From positions 1,824,001 through 1,888,000 of the forward strand of contig CAWCYD010000003.1 in assembly GCA_963799775.1 (NCBI GenBank): a stretch of 64,000 bases of DNA, given 5' to 3'. This DNA is from an uncultured archaeon. Lineage in GTDB: Archaea > Thermoproteota > Nitrososphaeria > Nitrososphaerales > Gagatemarchaeaceae. Position 1 is the stretch's first letter, and the number at the start of each line of letters is the position of its first letter. Both the position numbers and the translations under genes were made by a program. The notes under the pieces were generated by a model that searched no databases, was not told where the DNA came from, and saw only the letters and a program-made list of their open reading frames with translations. Below, piece after piece: positions 325 through 13,836 of this stretch.

Positions 325-1530
325 ATGATCCTCTCGAATCAGAATTCGTTCTTCAAGTCAAGGGGTCTCAATATCGGAATTATGATGGTGATTCTCACTC
401 TTCTGCTGCTTTCTAGAGCATTGCCAGTAGGTGCCGTTGCATCTCCCACTTCTTTCTGCTCTCCTGCTGCGATAAACAGCGCCACCGAGGCCCTTGATGC
501 TAATATCAACCAAGCAACAATCAAAGAGCATGCCACATCGACAGCTGCTCTGTACTCTTCCGTCTACAACGTCCAATACGAAGGCGTATTCTTCAACACA
601 ACATGGAATTCTAGTTGTATCGTTTCTATGGATTACGTGGGGGCGGCCTATGCAATGACGGACAAGAACGGTGCTAACTTCGTCCTAGAAATCATCGAGA
701 GCCCGTCCCTATCGTCTGTTCTTAATGTGACAATCTCTCCCTCAGTCTCGCACAGCATTTACAATGACAGCAGTGGGAACGGGGCCAAGTGGGCCGGATA
801 CGAATACAATTCGGGAAACGGACTCGAGGAGACTGAAGCGGATTGGTCTGTCCCCGCAATCAGTGGCCCTGGCTACGATGGGTCTGGTACGAACACGTGT
901 GATAATGGCCAAGACCAAACATACTCGAAATGCATTTACTCTTTCTGGGTTGGCGAGACCGAAGGCCCGGGAGGTTATAACAGCTCTTCAATCACAGGGC
1001 TTGCGCAGGGCGGTACCGATTCTGATTGCAGCAATAGCTGCGATGGCACCAGCAACGGCCCTGACACATACAACATGTGGATTGAATTCGTAAACAGCAC
1101 AAGGGATGACCGGCTACCTGACACCACAGATGTCGTAGGTTCTGGCGATTCCATACAGGCTTACGTAACCGTATTCCCAACCAACGACTACTACGTGAAT
1201 GTCCTTGACGAGCACTCGGGCAAGGCATGGTCTAGTTACATGCCTAACGGCTTCGGCATGGGCAAAGCACATTATGCCCAATTCATGGGCGAAACACCTG
1301 GTGGTTATTCTCTCCCTGACTTTTCAAGCTTCAGCGTTTCGGGAGCCGGATACTACGACGATAGCAGTAACTGGCACACCATCGGAAGCGGGTGGACGAC
1401 CGAGTACGTTCAAAACTATCCATCAGCCTATCAAACATGCAACAGTCAGTCTCACAAGTGGAACGTGTGCTCTGGTTCGGTCTCTAGTGGGGACTTCGGC
1501 CAGAGCTACCTTACAACTTCTGGCTATTGA
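325..1530 (+). CDS. Secreted glutamic peptidase (G1/A4 family)-like protein
   Basis: Signal peptide; G1-like motifs WAGY, WSVP, FWVG, LAQGGT, WIEF, GDSI, AQFMGE. Confidence 0.65.
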   Translation: MILSNQNSFFKSRGLNIGIMMVILTLLLLSRALPVGAVASPTSFCSPAAINSATEALDANINQATIKEHATSTAALYSSVYNVQYEGVFFNTTWNSSCIVSMDYVGAAYAMTDKNGANFVLEIIESPSLSSVLNVTISPSVSHSIYNDSSGNGAKWAGYEYNSGNGLEETEADWSVPAISGPGYDGSGTNTCDNGQDQTYSKCIYSFWVGETEGPGGYNSSSITGLAQGGTDSDCSNSCDGTSNGPDTYNMWIEFVNSTRDDRLPDTTDVVGSGDSIQAYVTVFPTNDYYVNVLDEHSGKAWSSYMPNGFGMGKAHYAQFMGETPGGYSLPDFSSFSVSGAGYYDDSSNWHTIGSGWTTEYVQNYPSAYQTCNSQSHKWNVCSGSVSSGDFGQSYLTTSGY

Positions 1531-1647
1531 TATGTCAAACAAATCTGCCAAACCTGGATAATCAGAAAGTTGCCGTGATAGAGCAATCCATCTCAATCCT
1601 TTTCTAGACCATCCCCAATAAAATTCTAACACTGAAGCTGGTGGCCT

Positions 1648-2514
1648 TTGAACAGTCGAACCGGAATCGCCCTGCTCGTGATCGGGTGCCTAATTCTTGG
1701 TTCGATTGCAACATATCAACAGATTCTCATCACCAAATCACCAGAGATAGCGAAAACAGTCACGGCTACAATCTCTCAAACTCAGACGACGACAATCACG
1801 TTGTCCACTACCACTTCAGTAAACAACACAGTGATTGTTTCGGCGGCGAATCAAACCATAGCCTCGACCTTGGGGCCGAACGGGATAATGTTACTGACTT
1901 CTATCAATGCCACAACTCTTATTGTCGGGCAACAATTGGAGATTAGCGTTTCGCTCTTCAATTCACTCCCTAGAGTAAACAGCGTACCAACCGCGGCTGA
2001 CTGGCAATTTAGAGGCGTCCCACTTTCCTTGTGGCAGGATTGCGATGTAACTCCTGCCAAACCCAATGGGCAAATGGAAACATATGCTACCGAGGTAGTC
2101 GTGCTGCCGGGATACTATACAATCAGCAACATATCGACGGTCGCCAGTGTCTTACTTCCCACTCAAGCTTGTCATGGCTTATCGAGTATGATAGACCACG
2201 TTATTTTCCAGCCGACCAGCTCAACGGCAAATATTACCGGAATCGGTGGAGTGTCAGCGAGTGGACCGATTAACATGACCGCCGGTCCATTCCACACATC
2301 GAACAGCTTCACTACTCGCGGAAGTTGGGATCTTTCAAGTGCTTTGTCTCAGCTTTTGAACGGAAGTCAGCCAGCTATCATCACTAACAACAAACCCGAG
2401 CAAGCAGCTAATATTCCTCCCACAACGTCATTCTCTCCTGGGATATACACGATAGGAATCTCAGATGAATGGGGGCAGAATATCATTTTTCACTTCGACG
2501 TTTTGTCAGAGTAA
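1648..2514 (+). CDS. Membrane-anchored/secreted protein, paralog of cassette genes 51762 and 52694
   Basis: N-terminal TM, Thr-rich linker, shared motifs INATT...GYY..NIS...PGIYTI...DEWGQ. Confidence 0.7.
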   Translation: MNSRTGIALLVIGCLILGSIATYQQILITKSPEIAKTVTATISQTQTTTITLSTTTSVNNTVIVSAANQTIASTLGPNGIMLLTSINATTLIVGQQLEISVSLFNSLPRVNSVPTAADWQFRGVPLSLWQDCDVTPAKPNGQMETYATEVVVLPGYYTISNISTVASVLLPTQACHGLSSMIDHVIFQPTSSTANITGIGGVSASGPINMTAGPFHTSNSFTTRGSWDLSSALSQLLNGSQPAIITNNKPEQAANIPPTTSFSPGIYTIGISDEWGQNIIFHFDVLSE

Positions 2515-2691
2515 TACAGACAGAAAGGAGGAAGTACGAGCACTTGTTTAATATTGTGTAAACAGAAGCTTGCTATCCCTGATTGGTTTCATTCGTGTCC
2601 AAAATATCACCATGACCTCTCAATCCCTAGGGGGAAGCTTCAACACGACGAGTTACAATAGGGCACCGAACCCGTAAATTTTGAAGATACG

Positions 2692-2792
2692 AGCCACAGA
2701 AGGGATTTGAACCCTCGACCTTCTGCTTACAAGGCAGTTGAGCCGAGAAGCATTCATTCTCGTATGCTCTAGCCAGGCTGAGCTACTGTGGC
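2692..2792 (-). tRNA. tRNA-Thr(UGU) with a 26-nt non-canonical intron at 27/28 (2738-2763)
   Basis: Minus strand GCCACAG-TA-GCTCAGCCTGGCTAGAGC-A-T[intron]CTGC-CTTGTAA-GCAGA-AGGTC-GAGGGTTCAAATCCCTT-CTGTGGC-T; BHB helix GAGC/GCTC with bulges ATA and AAC. Confidence 0.92.
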
Positions 2793-4244
2793 CCGAGCAC
2801 CCCCGCTTCTGATTCGGCTTAATCTCCTTTCCGTCAGTGACCTAGCAAAAAGGGCTCGGCAATCGACCGAAATCGCTTGCTTCGTATTCGGATAAGCAAG
2901 AGCAGCTGCCTTGTGACATCCTCCCGCGTTCTCGGAACGTGGGCTTTCAGCGGTTTGGTTTCCGCCTCTAGTTCCTGCTTCAACGACCGAGCTTGCAGCC
3001 CCAGTTGACCAGGGCCGTAGAGATCCGGTCTCCACAGGCTTGAGTTCGGGCGCGACCCGCCCAGGGTGCTCCTGAACGCGTCGAGGACCGCCACGGTCCT
3101 TGTCCCGCCCTACCTGAAGTATTCCTCTCTTCAGCACGACTCGACTAGCATTTCTGTCGCGGTCTAGAATCTTCTGGCAGCCCTTGCAAGGGAACTCGCG
3201 CACGTCCAACGACACTTCAGTGCGGGTTCCACATGACCAGCACTCTTGGGAGCTGAACGCCGGGGGCACTTTCACAAATATCTTCGCCGCCCGCGCTGCC
3301 TTGTATTCAACGAACTCCATGAGCTGGGCCCACGATGCATCCTTGATTGACTTGGCCAGGCTGTGGTTCCTTACCATGTTCCCGATACGCAAATCCTCGA
3401 AAGCCAGCAGGTCATGGTCTCTGACTAGTCTCGCGCTGAGCTTGTGGTTGAAATTCCGCCTCCTTCCGGATACCCTCGAGTACCGAGTTGCAAGTTCGAG
3501 CCGTGCCTTGTCTCGGTTCTTCGAGCTGGGTCTCTTGTTCGCCAGGCTCTTGTGAAGGCGGGCTAATCGCCTCTCAGATTTCCTAAAGAACCTCTGGGGC
3601 TCAACTCTCTCTCCATCGCTGGTGGTTATCAATGATTTCAGCCCCAAGTCAACACCTAGAGGCGATGTCCACGCTCTGGGGAGGGACACATCACATAATG
3701 GCATCCTGCTTTCGTACACCAGGCAAGCGAACCACTTGCCGTCCGGCTCGCGTTTGACTGTGCAAGTCTTGAGCTTCGCGCCCACCGGAACCGACCTGTG
3801 AATGACGACCTTGACATTGCCAATCTTAGAAAGATGTAGCCGATTCTTTTCGGTCTCGAGTTTGGCTCCGCCATTGTACGCCTGAGGATAGGTGAATGAA
3901 CCCCATCCACTGTGTTTCTTGAGTCCCGGGAACTTACCTTTGCCTCCGAAGAATTTCTTGAACGCCCTATCCACCCTCCTCAGCACGTCCTGGAGCGTCT
4001 GCATGTATAACGACCTCATCTCAGAGTTCTCTCTTACTTCGGTCGTAAGCATGAGACATTGCTGCCAGTAGGTTGTGGAATGTCTCTCTCCCTGCCACCT
4101 CGCCTTCCTGTCTTCAATGGCCATATTCCATAGACGGCGACAAACATCGACCGTCTCAATCATGCTCTTCTCTTGTCTTCTGTTCGGGTAGAGCCTAAAC
4201 TTGAAGACACTCCGAGCATTCAACTGGGAACTAACCCAAACCAA
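2769..4244 (-). CDS. tnpB: RNA-guided endonuclease TnpB (IS200/IS605 family), RuvC triad intact
   Basis: FKFRLYPN, GVDLG (D), AFEDL (E), SQECWSCG..CKGC zinc finger, DRDRNA (D); the long C-terminal tail runs through the omegaRNA; no tnpA seen. Confidence 0.92.
   Translation of the reverse strand: MVWVSSQLNARSVFKFRLYPNRRQEKSMIETVDVCRRLWNMAIEDRKARWQGERHSTTYWQQCLMLTTEVRENSEMRSLYMQTLQDVLRRVDRAFKKFFGGKGKFPGLKKHSGWGSFTYPQAYNGGAKLETEKNRLHLSKIGNVKVVIHRSVPVGAKLKTCTVKREPDGKWFACLVYESRMPLCDVSLPRAWTSPLGVDLGLKSLITTSDGERVEPQRFFRKSERRLARLHKSLANKRPSSKNRDKARLELATRYSRVSGRRRNFNHKLSARLVRDHDLLAFEDLRIGNMVRNHSLAKSIKDASWAQLMEFVEYKAARAAKIFVKVPPAFSSQECWSCGTRTEVSLDVREFPCKGCQKILDRDRNASRVVLKRGILQVGRDKDRGGPRRVQEHPGRVAPELKPVETGSLRPWSTGAASSVVEAGTRGGNQTAESPRSENAGGCHKAAALAYPNTKQAISVDCRALFARSLTERRLSRIRSGGARATVAQPG
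2896..3070 (-). ncRNA. Putative TnpB omegaRNA: scaffold ending ...GGGAGGATGTCAC at 2913 plus predicted guide 2912-2896
   Basis: Overlaps the tnpB 3' tail (ELKPVETG region) and ends in an IS200/IS605-like right end; 5' boundary approximate. Confidence 0.55.
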
Positions 4245-4247
4245 GCA

Positions 4248-4668
4248 TTAAGCACCCATGGAACGCCGAAGTTCGGCGAGAACTTTCCGAAGTTCCCCGC
4301 CCGACTGGGCAAGGAAATCTGCGTCCTTTAGGATCAGAGACAGAGTCGCAAGCTTATCCCGATTCTCATTGGGTGCCTCGATGAAGGCCCCGCAGACCAA
4401 CTTCGGCAGCGTGGCTTTTAGCAGCCCAAATCTGAGATTCATGTATGCAGCGCGTCGCCGTAGCTCCGAGAGAGCTGTTCCATTCCGCCTGCTGCAAGAA
4501 GTGCACTCGAGCACAATCCCACTTCCAAGAAACACCAGGAAATCCACAGAGATGCCCCTCTACGGGGTCGGAGGCCGAAGCTCGAACACATGGTGAGACG
4601 AAAGACAGCCGTTCCTCAATCAGGAGATTCCTGACCGACTCCTCTTGGAAGGTCAGGGGCATCATTGC
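4248..4668 (-). CDS. Frameshifted PD-(D/E)xK-like protein directly upstream of tnpB
   Basis: Joining frames gives FQEESVRNLL...ISVDFLVF...IVLEC; its stop lies 3 nt before the tnpB start. Confidence 0.35.
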
Positions 4669-4877
4669 ATGAGTCCTCCTCATCCATGCGATTGACGTGA
4701 CAGTTTACACCTATGCTATACCTCCTAGGGCTATTTAACCACCCATAGAACAAGACATTATTCTGCCTCTGATTGATAAACGGGGCTAGATTCGAGCTTC
4801 TATCATTGGGACAAACAGGATGACATTGCCGCTTAATTGTGGCCTACCACATGGTGTAACGCGCAGGCGGTCTATCG

Positions 4878-5576
4878 ATGAAAGGGCTCATTGTTCTTGC
4901 GGAGGGAACAAGACAAGACTTTCTGACTGTCTTGATTGACCAATCGTCCTTTGGGCTGCAACTCAATCGAGTCCTTTGCGTCTCTGACAAAGAGGAACAA
5001 AACTCGGCGATTGAGAAGCGCTTCGAGGAGTTCGGATACAGGCCAGAATTCCTCTCCTATTCCGACTTGCGGAAAACCAATGCAATGACCGCGAGAGGCA
5101 AGTCAGTCCTCCTCATCTCACCAGCAGAGGCAATCAACGAGTCTGATGCAAGGGGCATGATCGATGGCGGACTGGTCAAACTGCTCACCAGCAAGATTTG
5201 GAGGAATGTTCTCGCGTTCCATGAGACAGACGCTCCTCTTGGCATCACCCAGGTCAGGGCCCTTGACCACCTGTCTGAGTGGATCTCCAGAGGAATCAAT
5301 GAACGGCCGAAAGCTTGGTTCTACGAAATCTTGCTAACGCTGTTGTATAGGAGGCACGAGAGTGTCAGAGGCCTTCAGCGACTACTTGCAAAATCAGTCT
5401 GGAGCCAGCTCGTCCGTACTGATACAGCATCCGCAATCAGACAAGCGCGCGCAGAATTTCTGCGAGAGAATCTCATCTCTGAACGAAAAGGCAGCCTCAC
5501 TTGCAGCGAATCCGGGCGGCGGGCAGTAGAAGATTACACCCCGTTTGACAAGATTGAGTGTCCCGGACACCCGTAA
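4878..5576 (+). CDS. Hypothetical protein with probable C-terminal winged helix
   Basis: 232 aa; C-terminal LRENLISERKGSLTCSESGRRAVE is wing-like; overlaps the next gene. Confidence 0.55.
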   Translation: MKGLIVLAEGTRQDFLTVLIDQSSFGLQLNRVLCVSDKEEQNSAIEKRFEEFGYRPEFLSYSDLRKTNAMTARGKSVLLISPAEAINESDARGMIDGGLVKLLTSKIWRNVLAFHETDAPLGITQVRALDHLSEWISRGINERPKAWFYEILLTLLYRRHESVRGLQRLLAKSVWSQLVRTDTASAIRQARAEFLRENLISERKGSLTCSESGRRAVEDYTPFDKIECPGHP

Positions 5577-7431
5577 GCCACGTGATATCGATGAGAACGG
5601 TCCACGTCCGGGTTGGGAGCCTGATGACGACTCTCGTGAGCGTTCTGACTATCTCGAGGAACTGGTTTCCGAGAGCATAGAGAGACATGGATGGGTGACT
5701 GTCAACGAGGTCGCCACAGCAGCAGTCGACAGTCGAGTGATGCCGACCCGATCGAATGCAAAGTCGCGGAGGATCCTGAAGAAGCTCGTCGCCAAGGGAA
5801 GGCTCGTGGAGTCTGTCTACAGGACTGGCGTGGGCAGGCCACGTCTGGTCTACAGGAGGCGAAACTCCACAGATGCGGCAGAAATCTTCGATAATTCTTG
5901 CGGTGATTGCGCGCTCTACTCTCCTGTCGTGAGGAGATGCAGGTTGTGGTTGGCACTTTCTAGATTCAATGCTCAGCAAGTCTACGAGAGGCAAGAAGAA
6001 CTATCGGCCATCGCACGAGACAAGCTGCGCAACTCCAACAGAAGGGTAGGGCCTACTGCCACGGCCTGCGAGATATTCACTCCCAAGAAAAAGGATTATC
6101 CCCTGTCACAAGCCCGGGACAAATGTGCATCCTGCGGGCAGGAGATTGATACTCCCGTGGCGAAGACCGTCAAGTGTCCCAAATGCCTGACCACGTACAA
6201 GCCCCTCGCAACGAAGATCCTGGTCCACTACGACTACGAACAGTTGTTCAAGGCGCGTTATACTAAGCTAGCAGGAGTGCCACCCCCAAGGCAGGCTCTC
6301 GTGCTTACGGAGCAGGAAGTTCGCGCAGGAAAGACTGACTGGCGCGACATCATCGTTCTCTACCCTGGCGAGAAAGTTAGGCTGGAGGCAGAGGGCATCC
6401 ATGTGGAGCGAAGAAAAGGACGCTTGGCGTTCGAGCCTTACAATCGCATTTACCAGATCATCGATTATGGGGCGCTTACTGACAGGATGATTTGCTCCCT
6501 GAAGGCCGAAGGACTCTCCGTATTGCAGGGGCGTCTCCAAGAGGGTCCCAAAGGGAGAACGTCGTTCCCACTTTACCCGTCGCTTGGATTCGTCGAGAAG
6601 CTGCGCTGGCTCGAGCAGAATTCTCCCCTCCGCAGAGAACTCCTCAAATCGATGATGCTCAGCACGATAGTCGCCACCAAGAGGATAGCGAGCCGCGGCG
6701 GGCCAGGATTGAAGGTCCTTGTGAACCGGCAACTCCTCGAATTCGCCCGGATGAACACGGATGCCGAAATCTCTGTAAGCAGAGCTCTCGCCTACGAAGC
6801 TCGGGCCAACCGCCTATACTGGAGTGCCTACAAGACGATGCTCAGGGTCTCAGGGCTGGGGTTCGAAAGCAGAGTGAGGGACAGATTCGTCAGGGAGATA
6901 GTGCAGAGCATTAGGGCAAGGGCTAGAGGATATTCTCCCGCGAACGCTGCGATAAACTATCTCCACCAGAGGAGACTGCTCTTGTGTCGTCTCGCTAACG
7001 CGAGGACCGCCATCGGTTGGGTCGGATGCGAGGGAATACTCCACGTCGCGAAGAGGGAGCCAAGCATAGGCCTCTTGCTAGACCTCAGCGACTCTTTCAA
7101 GCTGGCTGATAGGGAGAGCTTCCTGAACGCGACGCTTCACATCGAGGTGACAAGGGACGATTTTGTTGCCCGTCTAGGAAGGCAGAGGACCTGGTTCTAC
7201 TATCCGACCCAGGAGGCAGTCGGCAAACTCGATTTGTATGGCTCACACGCCGACCAGTTTCACGTCGTCTATCGAGGTAAGAACATGACCTTGACTGGAG
7301 CTTATGATGAGCTACTAACCTCATTCATCGAGGCCGTAGAGAATTCTGACCTGACTCGTTTCTACCCATTTGTCTATGGCGGCGAAGAAGACGCAATGTG
7401 GCTCGAGAGTATGGATTCTGAGAGAGAATGA
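5545..7431 (+). CDS. Solo Cas1-like protein with N-terminal wHTH and Cys-rich/Zn-ribbon domains
   Basis: Cas1-like motifs YEARANRLYW (E), SPANAAINYL, GILH (H), LLLDLSDSFK (D); N-terminal wHTH (LKKLVAKGRL..GRPRLVY), CGDC..C..C and CASC..CPKC. Confidence 0.75.
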   Translation: MTRLSVPDTRKPRDIDENGPRPGWEPDDDSRERSDYLEELVSESIERHGWVTVNEVATAAVDSRVMPTRSNAKSRRILKKLVAKGRLVESVYRTGVGRPRLVYRRRNSTDAAEIFDNSCGDCALYSPVVRRCRLWLALSRFNAQQVYERQEELSAIARDKLRNSNRRVGPTATACEIFTPKKKDYPLSQARDKCASCGQEIDTPVAKTVKCPKCLTTYKPLATKILVHYDYEQLFKARYTKLAGVPPPRQALVLTEQEVRAGKTDWRDIIVLYPGEKVRLEAEGIHVERRKGRLAFEPYNRIYQIIDYGALTDRMICSLKAEGLSVLQGRLQEGPKGRTSFPLYPSLGFVEKLRWLEQNSPLRRELLKSMMLSTIVATKRIASRGGPGLKVLVNRQLLEFARMNTDAEISVSRALAYEARANRLYWSAYKTMLRVSGLGFESRVRDRFVREIVQSIRARARGYSPANAAINYLHQRRLLLCRLANARTAIGWVGCEGILHVAKREPSIGLLLDLSDSFKLADRESFLNATLHIEVTRDDFVARLGRQRTWFYYPTQEAVGKLDLYGSHADQFHVVYRGKNMTLTGAYDELLTSFIEAVENSDLTRFYPFVYGGEEDAMWLESMDSERE

Positions 7432-7930
7432 CAGGCGTTGAAAACTCATTCTGCCAAAATGATATCATCGCGACCAGTGGCGGCACCAGCGAACGCACTT
7501 GCAATTAGTCAGGGCGCGGCTGTTGCTCTCGCCGAGGCCTCTACAATATTCGTACAACATACTGCAAACTCGAAAGTCAGCTTCAGTCCCTATTTCTCCA
7601 AAGTCGTCGGGCTCGGATGCTCGGTCCGTTCACAATCACAGTCGACGCGCAGATAACCTACCAACTCGTGAGCAATACCTGGCTAATGCACCAAGAGGTC
7701 TGGAATTTTGTCAGCTTCCATAGCCAGAACACGGGCGGCTGGCCCACTTTTCCCCCCAATGGCAAATCGTCGGCCCTCCGCTTCCGCAGCACTATTCTGA
7801 GAGCCCATTCAAGAACTGGGTCTACTTCGATGGGGGCGCTGCCGCAGCAACGCTTCTGGCAGGATACCTCGCGACGATCCCCATCTTCGTCTACATCAAG
7901 AAGCGAAAACGCGTTTAGTCGCCAATATGG

Positions 7931-8371
7931 TTACTTTAGTGACTTCAGTGTCTTGAGGGCTTCGTAAGCCGAGGTAACCACCGCCGCGGAAATGACAGCA
8001 AGTGCGAAGACGAACAGCGGGGAAATCGTCGCTGGTCGTAAGAAAATCAACATAACTAAGAGGGATGTGAGGAAGAACGCAATATAGGCTACCTGGGTAG
8101 GAATCGCGAGTCGTTTGAATCGGATTACGTTATCAAACACAACCCTGTCGATGATGTAACCTTCTTGCACCTCCTTAACCAGTCCGAGTTGGAGCAATTT
8201 CTTTACATGATACTGAGCAACCGAAATCGAACTCAAACCTAGGTCTCGTTGGATTTCCCCAGTCCGGATAGGCTCGCCCGCCTTGAATATGTAGCGATAT
8301 ACTCTAAGAGTCGTTCCCTTTAATGATTCGCGAGAATCCTCTGACTGAGACTCGAACTCCGTCATACTCAC
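7931..8371 (-). CDS. wHTH regulator with two C-terminal TM helices
   Basis: EIQRDLGLSSISVAQYHVKKLLQLGLV; hydrophobic C-terminus. Confidence 0.75.
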   Translation of the reverse strand: MSMTEFESQSEDSRESLKGTTLRVYRYIFKAGEPIRTGEIQRDLGLSSISVAQYHVKKLLQLGLVKEVQEGYIIDRVVFDNVIRFKRLAIPTQVAYIAFFLTSLLVMLIFLRPATISPLFVFALAVISAAVVTSAYEALKTLKSLK

Positions 8372-8441
8372 GCAATTATCATTTGTCTTATATGCCTAAA
8401 CATTAGGTATGAGTTCGATTTACAACCTAAACAATAGGTAG

Positions 8442-9089
8442 ATGCACTGGCCTTCGTCATACCACAACGGCGAGGACCAAATGTCAGAATTTAGAAAGGA
8501 AATCGCGATAGGTGTCACGGTTGCGGTCGTAGTTGCCACAGCATTGGCCATTGCTTCAATCTCATCATTTTCTGGCCCATTAGGAGCCGCTTCCAGTAAT
8601 CCGAGTCAAACGTTGGTCGAGTCGCAGACTACGACATACATTTCACAATCACAATCATCCGTAACCATTTTCTCTAGTCAATCACTTTCCGGACCGCAAT
8701 ATCACCTGACATTCCAAGTTCTGGGAACATGCAATTCGAGCACAATATACTTGCCATGGGGCGTGACCATCTGGAATTCAACGATGAATAATCAGACCGA
8801 AAGCGTCCCAACAGGCACGCCTCTCGCAGAACTAGAGCAAGTTTCGGGGCTTCCGCCAGCGGCGGTCAATGGTTCAACGCAATCCACTACTACAATCACT
8901 GCGAGTTTCACCGGAAGCTCAGTAAGCAAACCGACCACCTTGCAAGACATGATAAACTTCACGCTCCCCGTAGGCACCTACTATTATCAGACGTATGGTC
9001 TGTCGATGGCGGAACACGGGACTGTGATTGTGAATGGAACATCGCAAGTCATTCAAATCCAACCACTCATACCGTGTTATAGCAAGTGA
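8442..9089 (+). CDS. Membrane-anchored Ser/Thr-rich protein
   Basis: N-terminal TM; FTLPVGTYYY Ig-like tail; start may be 8481. Confidence 0.6.
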   Translation: MHWPSSYHNGEDQMSEFRKEIAIGVTVAVVVATALAIASISSFSGPLGAASSNPSQTLVESQTTTYISQSQSSVTIFSSQSLSGPQYHLTFQVLGTCNSSTIYLPWGVTIWNSTMNNQTESVPTGTPLAELEQVSGLPPAAVNGSTQSTTTITASFTGSSVSKPTTLQDMINFTLPVGTYYYQTYGLSMAEHGTVIVNGTSQVIQIQPLIPCYSK

Positions 9090-9218
9090 TATTTTCAGGC
9101 TGCTTTGGCTTACTATGTAATTGAATTCTGTCTTCTAGACCTGTAATTTTTCCTTATAGTTGAAGCATGAACCGAAGTCCGCATAGAAATATATCATTAC
9201 AAACGCAAAAAGCTGCTG

Positions 9219-10430
9219 TTGCATCGCCCCATCGCAGCATCAATTCTTCTCGCTCTTTTCCTAACATTGCCATTAGGATTTGTGGCATCTGCTTCGACGG
9301 GGTCTTGGAACGGCCTGCCTACTTGGGCAAGGCTGCCTACGGTTCCACCTCCGATTGATGGTAAGCCGACTTGCTGGATTTTGAGTAACGGAGCATGGGT
9401 GGTTAATCCAGACGATTGCGTTCCCGTACCGCAAAATCTTATCCCCACTGAGGGAGGATTGCACCATCCCATTTACGGAGTCGACGATAATTTCATCGAA
9501 AGAGCCGCAACCTCAGTAGATGTGTCTCAATATAGCGGAGAATATGACAACCGTACAAATACGGCCGGAACCTACAGTGTTCAACTCAACACAAATATCT
9601 TTGTTGGCAATCTTTATGGGAGCAATGGGGATGAAGACTGGGACCAATTTGTTTTTCAAAATCAGCCCAATGTCCTCACTGACGAGTGTATAGTTCAGTG
9701 GGACTTATCGCAAAGCACATCACAACCTTTAGCTTATCCTGATAGCTACTGTCAGACGATTTCCCAGCAACTTCCGCTTGAAACTGCCTTCCAGGTGGTC
9801 GTGCAGGGATCTGCTACTAGTGGTTATCTTAGTGTCACTGTTTCTGCGCCGAGCTATACCCCGACTGCACTCTCGTTGACCGATGTTCTCGGTTTGGAGT
9901 ACGACAATTGGGGAACCACTTCAGGTACCATACTTGGCGCCGGGCTTTCGTCAACGGCTGATTTCTATTCTCCAGCCACGGTGTACACCGATGTTGGCAC
10001 TTATTCGAGCAACGAATACTATTCGCAACAGTCCGATACCAACACCGGTGAGATGAACAACCTGTATTACACATCTACGGGCCCTGCTGGTTGTGACACC
10101 AATTACGTCTGCTGGGAAGACACAGTGTCAAGCACTAGTTCGGGTGGTGGTTCGTTAAACCTGAATGTGAACTCGGTAAACTATAACACACAGTCTCCGA
10201 TTACTGGGTACTACACGCAACTTGACGATTCCAGCTATAATGAGCTTAGTTATGGTTATACGCCGACCACATACAGCGTGACCTACGGGAGTAACTATCT
10301 TGTTTATGCTGATGGCTATGGAAACTGCAACTTCTACCAGTGGTCTGATGGAAGCACATCGATGCCCCATCCTGTCACCCCGTATGGGGATACTACTCTC
10401 ACTGCGGAGTACACTGGCAGCAGTTGCTGA
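9219..10430 (+). CDS. Secreted protein of unknown function
   Basis: Signal peptide, 403 aa, S/T/Y/N-rich, C-terminal FYQWSDG..LTAEY module. Confidence 0.65.
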   Translation: MHRPIAASILLALFLTLPLGFVASASTGSWNGLPTWARLPTVPPPIDGKPTCWILSNGAWVVNPDDCVPVPQNLIPTEGGLHHPIYGVDDNFIERAATSVDVSQYSGEYDNRTNTAGTYSVQLNTNIFVGNLYGSNGDEDWDQFVFQNQPNVLTDECIVQWDLSQSTSQPLAYPDSYCQTISQQLPLETAFQVVVQGSATSGYLSVTVSAPSYTPTALSLTDVLGLEYDNWGTTSGTILGAGLSSTADFYSPATVYTDVGTYSSNEYYSQQSDTNTGEMNNLYYTSTGPAGCDTNYVCWEDTVSSTSSGGGSLNLNVNSVNYNTQSPITGYYTQLDDSSYNELSYGYTPTTYSVTYGSNYLVYADGYGNCNFYQWSDGSTSMPHPVTPYGDTTLTAEYTGSSC

Positions 10431-10601
10431 GTATCCTCGCGGCTCCGCCCAAGACTCACTGGTAGGGTCAAGAAGAGACGGACTGTCTCCTCGGACTCTA
10501 TTCTCGAGGCTCAGAATCGGCTTGCAAATCGCACTATCCACAGATTCCCTGTTGGCCCAAAGATAATATCAATCCAATCTCGCAAGGTCCTCGTCACCGC
10601 C

Positions 10602-11408
10602 TTGGAGAAGCGCGAACTGGGCAAGACAAGGGAGAAGGTGCCCGTGATCGGCATGGGGACATGGGAGGTGGGCGACTCACGAGGTGAGGGACGCGCACTC
10701 GAAATCCAGGCCGTCAGGAGAGGAATCGAACTCGGGATGGGGCTCATAGACACCGCCGAGATGTACGGCTATGGGAATGCAGAGAAGCTGGTGGGAGAAG
10801 CAATCAAGGACGTCAGAGACGAGGTCTTCATCGCGACGAAGATATCAGCCGACCACTTCCAGTATGAGGCCGTCCTGAAGGCCTGTGACGCGAGCCTAGC
10901 GCGACTGGGCGTGAAGCAGATTGACCTCTACATGCTGCATTGGCCCAACAGTCGCATCCCAATCAGCGAGACCATGAAGGCGATGGAGGAGCTGGTGTCG
11001 CGGGGAAAGATTCGCTATATCGGGGTGAGCAATTTCTCTGTGGCGCAGGTCGAGCAAGCGAGGGAGGCGCTTCCAAGGTCGGAGCTGGTCTCAAACGAGG
11101 TGCGATACAGCATAACGCACCGCTCAATAGAGTCCGAACTTCTTCCCTTCTGCGAGAAGGAGAAAATTACGGTCATCGCCTACAGCCCGCTGGACACTGG
11201 AAGGATGAGCAGCAAGATTCCGAAGGCCCTCCTCGAAAAGTACGGGATGACGCCTGCCCAATTGATGCTGAACTGGGTAACCTACGGGGAGGATGTGATC
11301 GCGATACCCAAAGCCTCGAACATCAAGCACATCGAGGAGAACGCAGCAGCGCTCGAGCCGAGGCTCTCGCCCGACGATTACAAGACCCTGTCCAGGATAT
11401 TCGACTAA
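10602..11408 (+). CDS. Aldo/keto reductase
   Basis: IGMGTW, IDTAEMYG, DLYMLHWP, IGVSNF, AYSPL, IPKAS. Confidence 0.95.
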   Translation: MEKRELGKTREKVPVIGMGTWEVGDSRGEGRALEIQAVRRGIELGMGLIDTAEMYGYGNAEKLVGEAIKDVRDEVFIATKISADHFQYEAVLKACDASLARLGVKQIDLYMLHWPNSRIPISETMKAMEELVSRGKIRYIGVSNFSVAQVEQAREALPRSELVSNEVRYSITHRSIESELLPFCEKEKITVIAYSPLDTGRMSSKIPKALLEKYGMTPAQLMLNWVTYGEDVIAIPKASNIKHIEENAAALEPRLSPDDYKTLSRIFD

Positions 11409-11411
11409 TCT

Positions 11412-13836
11412 CTAGTTTTTGGAGGCCCGGACCGCCTTGTGCGGCTTTTGGATGTGGTGCATCCTCTCCAGGTCGGGGAGATAGGGCCTCAGCTTGGTGG
11501 GCACCTTGGCTTCGATCGGTTCCCTGAGGCTCACTCCCTTGTCCCGCTTGGCCTTCCAGATCTTCTCGTCGAACTCGATGATCGCTGGCCCGATGCCCTT
11601 CGCTGCCTTACGTTTGTCGGGCTTGGGGAACGTCTCGAGGTGAATCGTGTGCTGCCCGTACAGCCTCCTCCAGATGTGGTCTGTGATGTGCGGCGTGATC
11701 GGGGCTACCAACAGCAAGACGGATTTCATCACGTGGTGGAGCGTGAACCTCGCCGCGTCGCGGTCATCCTTGGAGACCCCGTCCCCGTAGGCCCGCCCCT
11801 TGACCATCTCGATGTAGTGCGCCGCGAAGACGTTCCAGACGAACTCCCGTATCTTCGTCGCCGGCACGAACCCGTTTCCATCCTCGTAACCCGCAACACA
11901 CTCTCGTATCAACACGTTCAGTTCCGAGATGATCCAGACGTCGGTCGGCGTCAGCTTCGCCCTCTTCGGCTCCTGGAACGTCGCGATGAAGCGGCCCGTG
12001 TTCCAGAGCTTGGTGAGGAACTTGCCCGCCCCGGCCACCCTGTCCTCTGACAGCCTAAAGTCGTAACCGAGGTTCGCCTCGGCCGCGCCCCAGAATCGGA
12101 AGGTGTCCGTCCCGTACTTCTGCAGGAGCGGCTCCGGGTCCATGAAGTTCCCGAGGCTCTTGCGCATGGCCCTCCCCTGGGCGTCCTGCCCGAGGCCTCC
12201 GACCCACGCGTCGCTGAAGGGAGCCTTTCCCGTCAATAGGTAGCACCTGAGCAGCGAGTAATACAGCCAGGTCCTGACGATGTCCTTGCCTTGGAGCCTG
12301 AGCGTCGTGGGATAGGTCAGTTTGTGGAACTTTGGGTTCTTCGTGATTTTGGTAATGTAGAGCGCGGAGATGCTCGAGTCCATCCAGGTGTCGAACGTGC
12401 GGGCCTCTCCCACGAACCTCGTGTTGGCACACTTCACGCACTTTTTGAACGGGGCGGGGTCCCTTCCACGGCCTGTAATACTTCCCGGGCTTTGGCAGGT
12501 GCGGCGTCCCACATTTCCCGCAATACCAGATCGGAATCTCCGTGGCATAGTAGCGCCGCCGTGAGATGGGATAGTCCGTGGTGAGCGAGTTCATCCAGTC
12601 GAGTAGGATCTGCCTGTGCATCGGCGGGTGGAACTTGATCTGCTTCGCGAGCTTCTTCAGCGTGGGCACGAACTGGAGCTGCTTGAGGTAGAACTCCTCC
12701 ATCGGGATTATCTCGATGGGGGTGTGGCTCCTCTCGCACAGCGGCGTGCGGTGCTGCACCTGCTCGACCTTGACCGCTATCTTGGAGTCCTGGAGGTGCC
12801 TGAATTATCTGGGAGCGGGCGTCCTTCACCGCCATGGCGACATACTTCCCTGTCACGGCTGTCATCTTCCCCTCTATGTCGATTGCCTGGACCTCCTTGA
12901 GGCCGAACTGCCTGAATAGCTGGACGTCGTTGTAGTCGCCGTAGCTGCAGACCATCAGGACGCCGGTCCCGAAGGTCGGGTCGACGCTCTTGTGCGTCTT
13001 TATCGGGCACCTCGATGCCGTATACTGGGACCACGGCGGTCTTCCCCACGACGTCCTTGTATCGCTCGTCAGCCGGGTTCACCACTACGAGTTGGCACGC
13101 CGCGAGCAGCTCGGGCCTCGTGGTCGCGACCTCGATCTCGGCCCCGGTCTCCTTGACCTTGAACCTGTTCGTGACCAGGTATGTCGGGAGGTTCATCGTA
13201 TTCTATCTCGGCGTCGGCTATCGTGGTCCCGCAGTCCGTGCAGTAGTTGTTGGGCCTCGTCGCGATGTGGACCAGGCCTTTGTTCCAGAGCTCGATGAAC
13301 GACCACTGGGTGAGCGTCCTGTACTCCTCAGAGTCGGTCCTGTACTTTTCCTTGAAGTCGCCCGATATCCCGAGCCTCTTCATGAGGTCCACCATGTATT
13401 GCTCGATGTCGTCGAGCGCGTGCTTGCACAGGCCGATGAACTCGTCCCTGGGAGTCTTCCGCATCTGGATCCTGTACTTGCGCTCGGTGGCGATCTCCAC
13501 CGGCAGCCCGTTCCTGTCGATCCCCACGGGATAGAGGACGCTCAGCCCCCTCATCCTCGCCGCCCTCGCGACCATGTCTATCTGCGCGTACTGGGTGAGC
13601 GCCCCGGGGTGCCACGGTCTCCCTGAGGGGTAGGGAGGCGGCGTGTCCATCACAAAGTTGCGTTTCTTGTTGCTATTCGGTCTGAATATGAAGATATCTT
13701 GAAGGCTCCAGATTCTGCGAATCTCTTCTTCGAGCAGAGGGTTCCAACTGGTCGACTCTAGCTTGTTGGGTAGGGCTGCTGTCGCGGGAGCTGCTTCCCG
13801 CCTCGGCTCCCCCTGGGTCTCCAAAACTCCGTTCAC
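11412..13836 (-). CDS. valS: Valyl-tRNA synthetase, split by about 4 frameshifts (probably assembly errors)
   Basis: DTPPPYPSG..HPG, ATTRPELL, FGTGVLMVCSYGD, ISRRRYYATEIP, FDTWMDSS, MRKSLGN spread over successive frames. Confidence 0.88.

Follow-up and report, generated by a model that had tools for sequence, protein, structure and literature searches.

TnpB is a nuclease that serves transposon retention and is the ancestor of Cas12; in nuclease-dead form it acts as a repressor. The older literature on disrupted tRNA genes holds the idea that introns may shield these genes from sequence-specific attack. We have studied a locus where the two subjects meet, a tnpB gene lying beside an intron-bearing tRNA-Thr(UGU) gene in a stretch of 64,000 nucleotides from an uncultured archaeon of the Gagatemarchaeaceae (contig CAWCYD010000003.1, positions 1,824,001 to 1,888,000), which we call the window. 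The guide segment of the omegaRNA of this TnpB matches the neighboring tRNA gene in the form that lacks the intron.

Several described systems come close to this arrangement. In the collaborative homing of phages, a free-standing homing endonuclease is encoded beside an intron that interrupts its target, and some archaeal introns of the bulge-helix-bulge (BHB) type carry genes for LAGLIDADG homing endonucleases; the TldR proteins are nuclease-dead repressors derived from TnpB (all as described in PMC13565253). At the tRNA-Thr(GGU) locus of Caldiarchaeum subterraneum there is population heterogeneity; a stray fragment from the 5′ side of a tRNA lies next to a repeated insertion sequence, and the working copy of the gene contains an extra non-canonical intron at position 24/25 (Sugahara et al. 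2012, PMC3293823). A full-text search of the literature turned up no paper on a TnpB whose guide is directed at a tRNA gene in its intron-less form.

The window belongs to a genome of 2.47 Mb in three contigs, 81.67% complete, here called G000. A preliminary description, made from the sequence of the window alone, had proposed that an intact TnpB cuts intron-less tRNA-Thr alleles, or tRNA-bearing attachment sites (attP) of viruses and islands, while the intron protects the host gene.

Results

The guide matches the neighboring tRNA-Thr gene without its intron

On the minus strand the transposon right end reads ...GGGAGGATGTCAC, ending at 2913, and is followed by AAGGCAGCTGCTCTTGC at 2912-2896. 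All ten omegaRNA copies in G000 share the terminal sequence ...GGATG(T/C)CAC, past which they diverge at once, and the same is true of five orthologous loci. Because every copy diverges directly after this motif, the right end can be placed at 2913 and the start of the guide at 2912, which is where the preliminary description had put them. The scaffold has 29 predicted pairs, 11 of which show compensatory changes in a set of 15 sequences, and the sharp divergence past ...CAC points to an RNA scaffold that ends there. Inside the scaffold lies a sub-threshold Rfam match to RAGATH-18 (2972-3038, minus strand, 27.5 bits with a cut-off of 44.9).

The tRNA-Thr(UGU) genes of G018, G019 (contig 3), G020 and G022 contain no intron at this place and read ...AGAGCAGCTGCCTTGTAA... 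Bases 1-14 of the guide are the exact antisense of positions 21-34 of this intron-less gene in all four, and TTAC directly adjoins the matched stretch. The match of 15/17 bases to the spliced form of the window tRNA, reported at the outset, is correct, and the alleles of the sister species give 14/14 after TTAC. The chance of a 14/14 match to a tRNA about 100 bases away, at a transposon end and after TTAC, is roughly 1e-6 to 1e-5 by an analytic estimate, taken as 4^-14 times a few hundred to a few thousand tRNA positions. For a 17-mer with up to two mismatches, about 0.4 chance matches are expected genome-wide by calculation, and one was found besides the guide itself. No other plausible target of the guide was found in G000. 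A match with two mismatches at G019:C24 was rejected as a chance match, because it lies in coding DNA without an omegaRNA. The observation that the guide matches the intron-less form of the neighboring tRNA-Thr gene is confirmed.

The gene in the window is interrupted within this stretch. On the plus strand, TTAC (2727-2730) and AAGGCAG (2731-2737) are followed by 26 bases (2738-2763) before the sequence resumes with ATGCTCTAGC. The match thus stops after seven nucleotides, exactly where the intron begins, as first described. The intron falls between guide bases 7 and 8, and T27 of the tRNA mismatches guide base 8. The same mismatch at base 8 is present in all six loci at which we have found this module (see below), yet the base matches the foreign intron-less allele. 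As read from the sequence, the candidate site has the layout of a homing site: it spans the point of intron insertion and would be disrupted in the intron-bearing allele.

The tRNA gene and its intron

The tRNA gene at 2692-2792 (minus strand) scored 45.4 bits with Rfam RF00005 (cut-off 29), with an unaligned insert of 42 bases. ARAGORN in default mode detected no tRNA at 2692-2792, and with introns allowed it called a tRNA-Ser, which we regard as a miscall; Rfam and reading by eye were used instead. Deletion of the 26 bases 2738-2763 gives, from the sequence and its fold, a five base pair anticodon stem with a T27:A43 pair and the loop CTTGTAA. The canonical cloverleaf is thereby regained, as expected for an archaeal tRNA intron. 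In the minimum-energy fold of the intron, GAGC of exon 1 pairs with GCUC in the 3′ part of the intron to form a four base pair helix; there is a three-base bulge (AUA) on the 5′ side, and a six base pair helix (CGAGAA/UUCUCG) below. The second splice site would lie in an unpaired AAC, lacking a closing outer helix, and the predicted structure is therefore of the relaxed BHB form. An intron at position 27/28 is present in each of the six tRNA genes that are linked to TnpB. In G000 we found no further copy of the 26-base intron, no second tRNA-Thr(UGU) gene besides that of the window, and no match to an intron-less copy of it. The putative promoter and leader (2793..2837) is 82% identical between G000 and G019, and is common to the region upstream of the intron-less genes of the relatives.

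A TnpB with intact RuvC motifs

The protein encoded beside the tRNA has matches to the Pfam families OrfB_IS605, Cas12f1-like_TNB and HTH_OrfB_IS605 (PF01385, PF07282 and PF12323). It scores 275 bits against the NCBIfam model guided_TnpB NF040570 (cut-off 100) and matches the structures of ISDra2 TnpB (8h1j, 8bf8) at E about 1e-44. The full domain architecture of a TnpB is present, with an N-terminal helix-turn-helix (HTH)/WED-REC part, a RuvC domain and a zinc finger. The RuvC motifs GVDLG, AFEDL and DRDRNAS and the two CxxC motifs of the zinc finger are kept in all five full-length orthologs, in agreement with the earlier view of the RuvC domain as intact. We take the catalytic D-E-D residues to lie within the three RuvC motifs.

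The TnpB of this lineage is single-copy. Its nearest relative is the ortholog in G019, with 74% protein identity. All other TnpB proteins are at most 57% identical (the next-best paralogs 50-57%) among 23 genomes of the genus and a sample of 151 genomes of the order.

A linked module under long-term selection

A BLAST probe of 501 bases, which ran from the tRNA across the guide into the first part of the scaffold, recovered the same module from contig 126 of G019, where homology extends from 2683 to 4228 of the window at 77%. An exact pattern of 22 bases, made up of the right end and guide bases 1-14, was found in four metagenome contigs. Among species representatives it occurred in the G019 contig only; it was present in two of the 23 genus genomes, and in one (G000 itself) of 401 sampled genomes of the class. 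Three runs of soil DNA reads yielded only short contigs of low depth and tRNAs of other organisms, and no joints.

The order of elements is the same in all six loci: right end, guide, variable spacer, conserved promoter, and a tRNA-Thr gene with T27 and the 27/28 intron. Guide bases were part of the pattern that led to four of the six loci, so that only the comparison of G000 with G019 is unbiased for guide identity. Between these two, guide bases 1-15 are identical (15/15), and bases 16-23 agree at six of eight positions. The spacer is only 0.37 identical, with a 15-column gap in addition, and the DNA downstream of the tRNA 0.42 identical. Among the six loci both the length and the sequence of the spacer vary widely. 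The flank past guide base 14 resembles the 5′ half of the tRNA weakly in two loci, where 648/5000 shuffles (G019) and 242/5000 shuffles (L082) reach the observed score, and in the other four flanks no resemblance was found. As the similarity past base 14 is weak, the tRNA-derived part appears to have been kept over the length of the guide only.

In the core of TnpB the ratio of nonsynonymous to synonymous substitution rates (dN/dS) is 0.08-0.16, at synonymous rates (dS) of 0.5-2.0 (10 pairs). Past the core, the tnpB frame runs on through the omegaRNA and the guide. Over the omegaRNA dS falls to 0.07-0.29 with dN/dS of 0.5-1.4, and the constraint there therefore acts on the RNA and not on the protein. 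Judged from these rates and identities, purifying selection has acted over the long term on the TnpB protein, on the RNA scaffold and on the guide, even though the element is immobile.

Alleles and history of the locus

Of 81 genomes sampled from the family, 35 showed the intron-less pattern, mostly with C27 and in five cases with G27. The 27/28 intron was present in three of the 81: G000, G019 and G501, the last belonging to another genus. A further match, in G005, proved to be false. G011 (L020) adds another 27/28 intron, together with a second intron at 37/38. The intron allele is thus rare and patchy, and occurs in two genera. The tRNA-Thr(UGU) gene is unusually diverse within the genus as a whole, the 27:43 pair being found in all four Watson-Crick states. 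In G017 (L062) the gene is interrupted by introns both at 37/38 and within the T loop, and in G004 (L029) it has an insert in the D loop. Introns at 37/38 alter the base at position -4 of TTAC.

By the protein sequences of two flanking genes, the TnpB-bearing contig 126 of G019 groups with the intron-less G018, G020 and G022 (83-85% identity for gene A and 73-77% for the second), and the TnpB-bearing G000 is an outgroup at 64-70%. The metagenome-assembled genome (MAG) G019 carries both alleles, TnpB with the intron in contig 126 (L019) and the intron-less target in contig 3 (L039), with flanks that are 93% identical.

The locus is rearranged in every genome compared. In G022 the intron-less tRNA is immediately preceded by the aldo-keto reductase gene. 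Relative to G022, the DNA from the guide to position 10601 of the window is an insertion between the tRNA promoter and this gene; at L085 tnpB and the guide alone occupy the place of the insertion. Some 600 bases downstream of its tRNA-Thr, L082 contains an inverted and truncated 5′ fragment of a tRNA, which covers about 14 bases of the acceptor and D-stem strand and has a promoter of the tRNA type. Scenarios of inversion or replacement that might account for an inverted, guide-length tRNA fragment upstream of a working gene were considered, and none fits all loci.

Left end, target motif and mobility

Homology among the six loci starts at TGGGYGCTTAA, just 5′ of the start codon, so that the left end is reduced to about 15-20 bases. 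At L085 the DNA directly 5′ of this remnant is the host region that in G022 precedes the intron-less tRNA. On the left-end side, a search for the decayed remains of the tRNA 3′ half found nothing. In the paralogs of G000 the left end is about 95 bases long (about 70 more than here) and includes a hairpin. It is preceded by TTTAT in five of seven cases, and by TTTAA and CCTAT in one each. Two paralog derivatives of about 290 bases contain a left end and an omegaRNA but no gene (G000:C3:444710-444963 and C3:356680-356934); each is preceded by TTTAT and has a guide of its own.

These flanks bear on the target-adjacent motif (TAM). The preliminary description had taken TTAC as the TAM, a tetramer borrowed from IS608, and this does not agree with the paralogs of the same genome, which insert after TTTAT. 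The candidate site in the tRNA reads CTTAC. It has T(-3) and A(-2), which are common to all seven paralog flanks and are missing from the right end GTCAC, and shares nothing further. The left end of a mobile IS200/IS605 element would have a hairpin at the target motif, and the element would be accompanied by TnpA. Here the hairpin is missing, and no match to the Y1 TnpA family (PF01797) was found in the 81.67% of the genome that is represented.

Features of the window and neighboring genes

The features of the locus are collected in Table 1. The small gene upstream of tnpB is conserved in G019, L083, L084 and G011, and has no Pfam family. The inserted DNA is not recognizable as a casposon, there being no terminal inverted or direct repeats at its ends and a score of only 22 bits (cut-off 71.7) for the cas1 equivalog. 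Neither a CRISPR array nor terminal repeats were seen near the gene for the Cas1-like protein, which is isolated within the inserted DNA.

Table 1. Coordinates of features at the tRNA-Thr(UGU)/tnpB locus, in positions of the window
Feature	Position	Strand	Remarks
tRNA-Thr(UGU) gene with one intron	2692..2792	-	Exon 2, 2692-2737; intron, 2738-2763; exon 1, 2764-2792
TTAC and seven still-matching bases (truncated would-be target)	2727..2737	+	Match ends at the start of the intron
26-base intron	2738..2763	-	Between tRNA positions 27 and 28; relaxed BHB type, splicing predicted from the fold
tnpB open frame	2769..4244	-	Conserved TTG start 4223-4221; family core to about 3110
tRNA promoter and leader (GACGGAAAGGAGATTAAGCC...)	2793..2837	-	Putative promoter
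Variable spacer, 52 bases	2838..2889	-	From the guide to the tRNA promoter
Guide segment of the omegaRNA	2890..2912	-	Bases 1-15 are 2912-2898; begins where the conserved right end stops
omegaRNA scaffold and transposon right end	2913..3110	-	Overlaps the 3′ part of the tnpB frame
Left-end remnant (TGGGTGCTTAA)	4245..4262	-	Probably the tnpB promoter region; hairpin and TAM missing
Small conserved gene upstream of tnpB	4248..4683	-	137 amino acids in L084; frameshifted in G000
Inserted DNA, tnpB to host aldo-keto reductase gene (10602-11408)	4248..10601		Contains the gene for the Cas1-like protein
Cas1-like protein, 628 amino acids	5545-7431	+	Cas1 domain at residues 270-543 (Pfam 29.7 bits); cysteine-rich N-terminal part

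A class I aminoacyl-tRNA synthetase at 11412-13836 (minus strand) falls into three overlapping frames (378, 234 and 255 amino acids), and is either a pseudogene or affected by indel errors of the assembly. A DinB-like gene just to the left of the window (G000:C3:1822362-1823618) is split too, and so is the small gene upstream of tnpB (4683-4248). Positions 325-2514 (plus strand), which separate the tRNA from the conserved genes downstream, encode two serine/threonine-rich proteins that are probably secreted and have no Pfam families. Both are absent from the same place in the relatives compared.

Discussion

The reading that we favor, with as much confidence as doubt, is that this locus encodes a fixed, RNA-guided TnpB nuclease directed against intron-less tRNA-Thr(UGU) alleles, and that the intron provides immunity. 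To that extent the overall interpretation given in the preliminary description is partly supported. An ancestral element most likely entered an intron-less copy of tRNA-Thr at the anticodon loop, behind TTAC, since a guide is acquired only by insertion next to such a sequence. The left end would then have been lost, while protein, scaffold and guide were conserved. The ribonucleoprotein would cut DNA containing the uninterrupted site, whether an intron-less allele that comes in by DNA exchange, a tRNA-Thr(UGU) gene of foreign origin, or a revertant without the intron. The host's own gene would be immune through the intron and T27, because only seven bases beside the TAM-like site match. Repair from the intron-bearing chromosome would copy the intron allele along with the adjacent tnpB, much as when a free-standing homing endonuclease cooperates with an intron. 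If the nuclease and an intact intron-less allele were unable to share one cell, this would explain the constant linkage of TnpB with the intron.

A number of our own results weigh against this. The TAM is the weakest link. The paralog flanks are mostly TTTAT and the tRNA site reads CTTAC, and the lineage itself has lost the left end from which its TAM would be read. The contiguous match of guide to target is 14 bases only, and in four of the six loci the identity of the guide was imposed by the search pattern (guide bases 1-14). The inner nodes that relate G018, G019, G020 and G022 have supports of 0.00-0.86, and on a tree so poorly resolved the distribution might also be due to one loss of the module. 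The two alleles of G019, a MAG that is 59% complete, may come from two populations; alternatively they may reside in one genome, which would then tolerate a self-target. The co-occurrence of TnpB, guide and intron in relatives, proposed earlier as a check, holds in six of six loci in one direction, but not in the other. The intron allele is found without TnpB or guide nearby in G011 and G501, and the intron thus does not depend on the nuclease; it can persist, and perhaps arose, independently of TnpB.

Could the locus instead be an inert relic? An old insertion of IS200/IS605 type into a fragment of tRNA-Thr might have left the tRNA-like flank as a scar, with TnpB kept for unrelated reasons or slow to decay. 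This is possible, though we think it unlikely. Whatever DNA flanks the right end is by definition the guide. The rearrangement of the locus in every genome compared, and the additional truncated tRNA fragment with its promoter in L082, are in keeping with such a history, as are the Caldiarchaeum tRNA-Thr loci, which are described as disrupted by mobile DNA, with gain of an intron (PMC3293823). The existence of the intron allele without TnpB, and a paralog TAM that is TTTAT and not TTAC, fit as well. However, a neutral scar should decay like the spacer, at 0.37 identity, yet guide bases 1-15 are unchanged, and the tRNA-derived part has been retained over the guide length and no further. Nor is this TnpB decaying: it is immobile and present as a single copy, yet its dN/dS is about 0.1 while dS reaches 2. 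A relic accounts for the origin of the arrangement, but not for its conservation.

The two remaining explanations leave TnpB a function, but a different one. A fixed TnpB might defend the host by cutting incoming elements or viruses that carry tRNA-Thr(UGU) or an attachment site derived from it, with the intron sparing the host gene. The module adjoins inserted DNA, 39 integrations of mobile elements (57%) in Thaumarchaeota are reported to sit in tRNA genes (PMC6563490), and the 18-base target including TTAC is common in virus-borne tRNA-Thr genes, with 100 stretches in the viral collection. Yet the 80 viral loci that were examined out of these 100 are all whole tRNA-like genes of unrelated sequence, in unrelated viruses; the closest of them agrees with the G018 tRNA at 63/75 positions, none resembles an attachment site of this lineage, and no virus of the lineage was identified. 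The elements described in PMC6563490 moreover recombine mostly with the 3′-distal part of the tRNA, whereas the target here corresponds to positions 21-38. The attP branch of the preliminary description, with the virus search that it suggested, has therefore received no specific support, and we consider defense improbable. We think it very improbable that the conserved 15-23 bases act at the RNA level, as an antisense to tRNA-Thr or its precursor, or that TnpB binds without cutting. The guide is indeed complementary to both exon ends of the precursor, and tnpB, guide and tRNA lie on one strand, so that read-through transcripts are possible. Nuclease-dead relatives of TnpB are described as repressors (PMC13565253; preprint 10.1101/2023.11.30.569447). 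The RuvC motifs are intact here, unlike those of the repressor family, and the constant mismatch of guide base 8 with the host tRNA, at a position that matches the foreign allele, also weighs against such a role.

Returning to TnpB as a nuclease against intron-less alleles, we would tentatively carry the idea one step further, to an RNA-guided gene drive. An immobilized TnpB and an immune tRNA-Thr allele might make up a selfish pair, by which intron-less alleles are converted or excluded during the exchange of DNA among Nitrososphaeria. More broadly, guides borne by transposons might be one of the forces that create or maintain non-canonical introns in archaeal tRNA genes; this is a speculation that we would not rate as probable.

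If the favored reading is correct, it would represent a different natural use of TnpB, as a nuclease-competent and chromosomally fixed protein whose conserved guide is directed at one allele of the essential gene beside it, an RNA-guided counterpart of the free-standing homing endonuclease. It would also bear on the old question why the tRNA genes of archaea so frequently carry interruptions at unusual positions. The idea of protection by introns can be tested directly here, as a single enzyme with its guide and two natural alleles are at hand, and the finding merits experimental follow-up.

Comparison with known systems

The system resembles the TnpB of ISDra2-type IS200/IS605 elements in its set of domains, in an omegaRNA that overlaps the 3′ end of the gene up to the right end, and in a guide formed by the first bases of the flank. 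It differs in that no left-end hairpin, readable TAM or TnpA was found with it, and in being single-copy, at one chromosomal locus, and kept across diverged lineages. In the restorative homing of transposons the guide matches the empty donor site made by excision, whereas here it matches an allele of a neighboring host gene. TldR proteins are, like this one, domesticated relatives of TnpB with a fixed guide toward host sequence. They are defined by the loss of catalytic residues, however, and here the RuvC motifs are intact and the uninterrupted target is missing from the host genome.

The closest parallels lie in homing. As in the collaborative homing of phages, the nuclease gene lies outside but beside the intron, the candidate site spans the insertion point, and the intron would give immunity; but recognition would be by a guide RNA and not by a protein, the intron is a BHB tRNA intron and not of group I, and homing is here only proposed. 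Like the BHB introns with LAGLIDADG genes, this is an archaeal intron tied to a site-specific nuclease, the proposed target of which is the intron-less allele, although the nuclease is encoded outside an intron of 26 bases and belongs to the TnpB family. At the Caldiarchaeum locus, as here, a tRNA-Thr gene, heterogeneity of alleles, a tRNA fragment and an extra intron coincide. In the accessible part of that paper no RNA-guided nuclease or guide match is described (PMC3293823), and the fragment there consists of an identical 5′ half together with upstream sequence, whereas at the present locus it is a piece of guide length only, and inverted.

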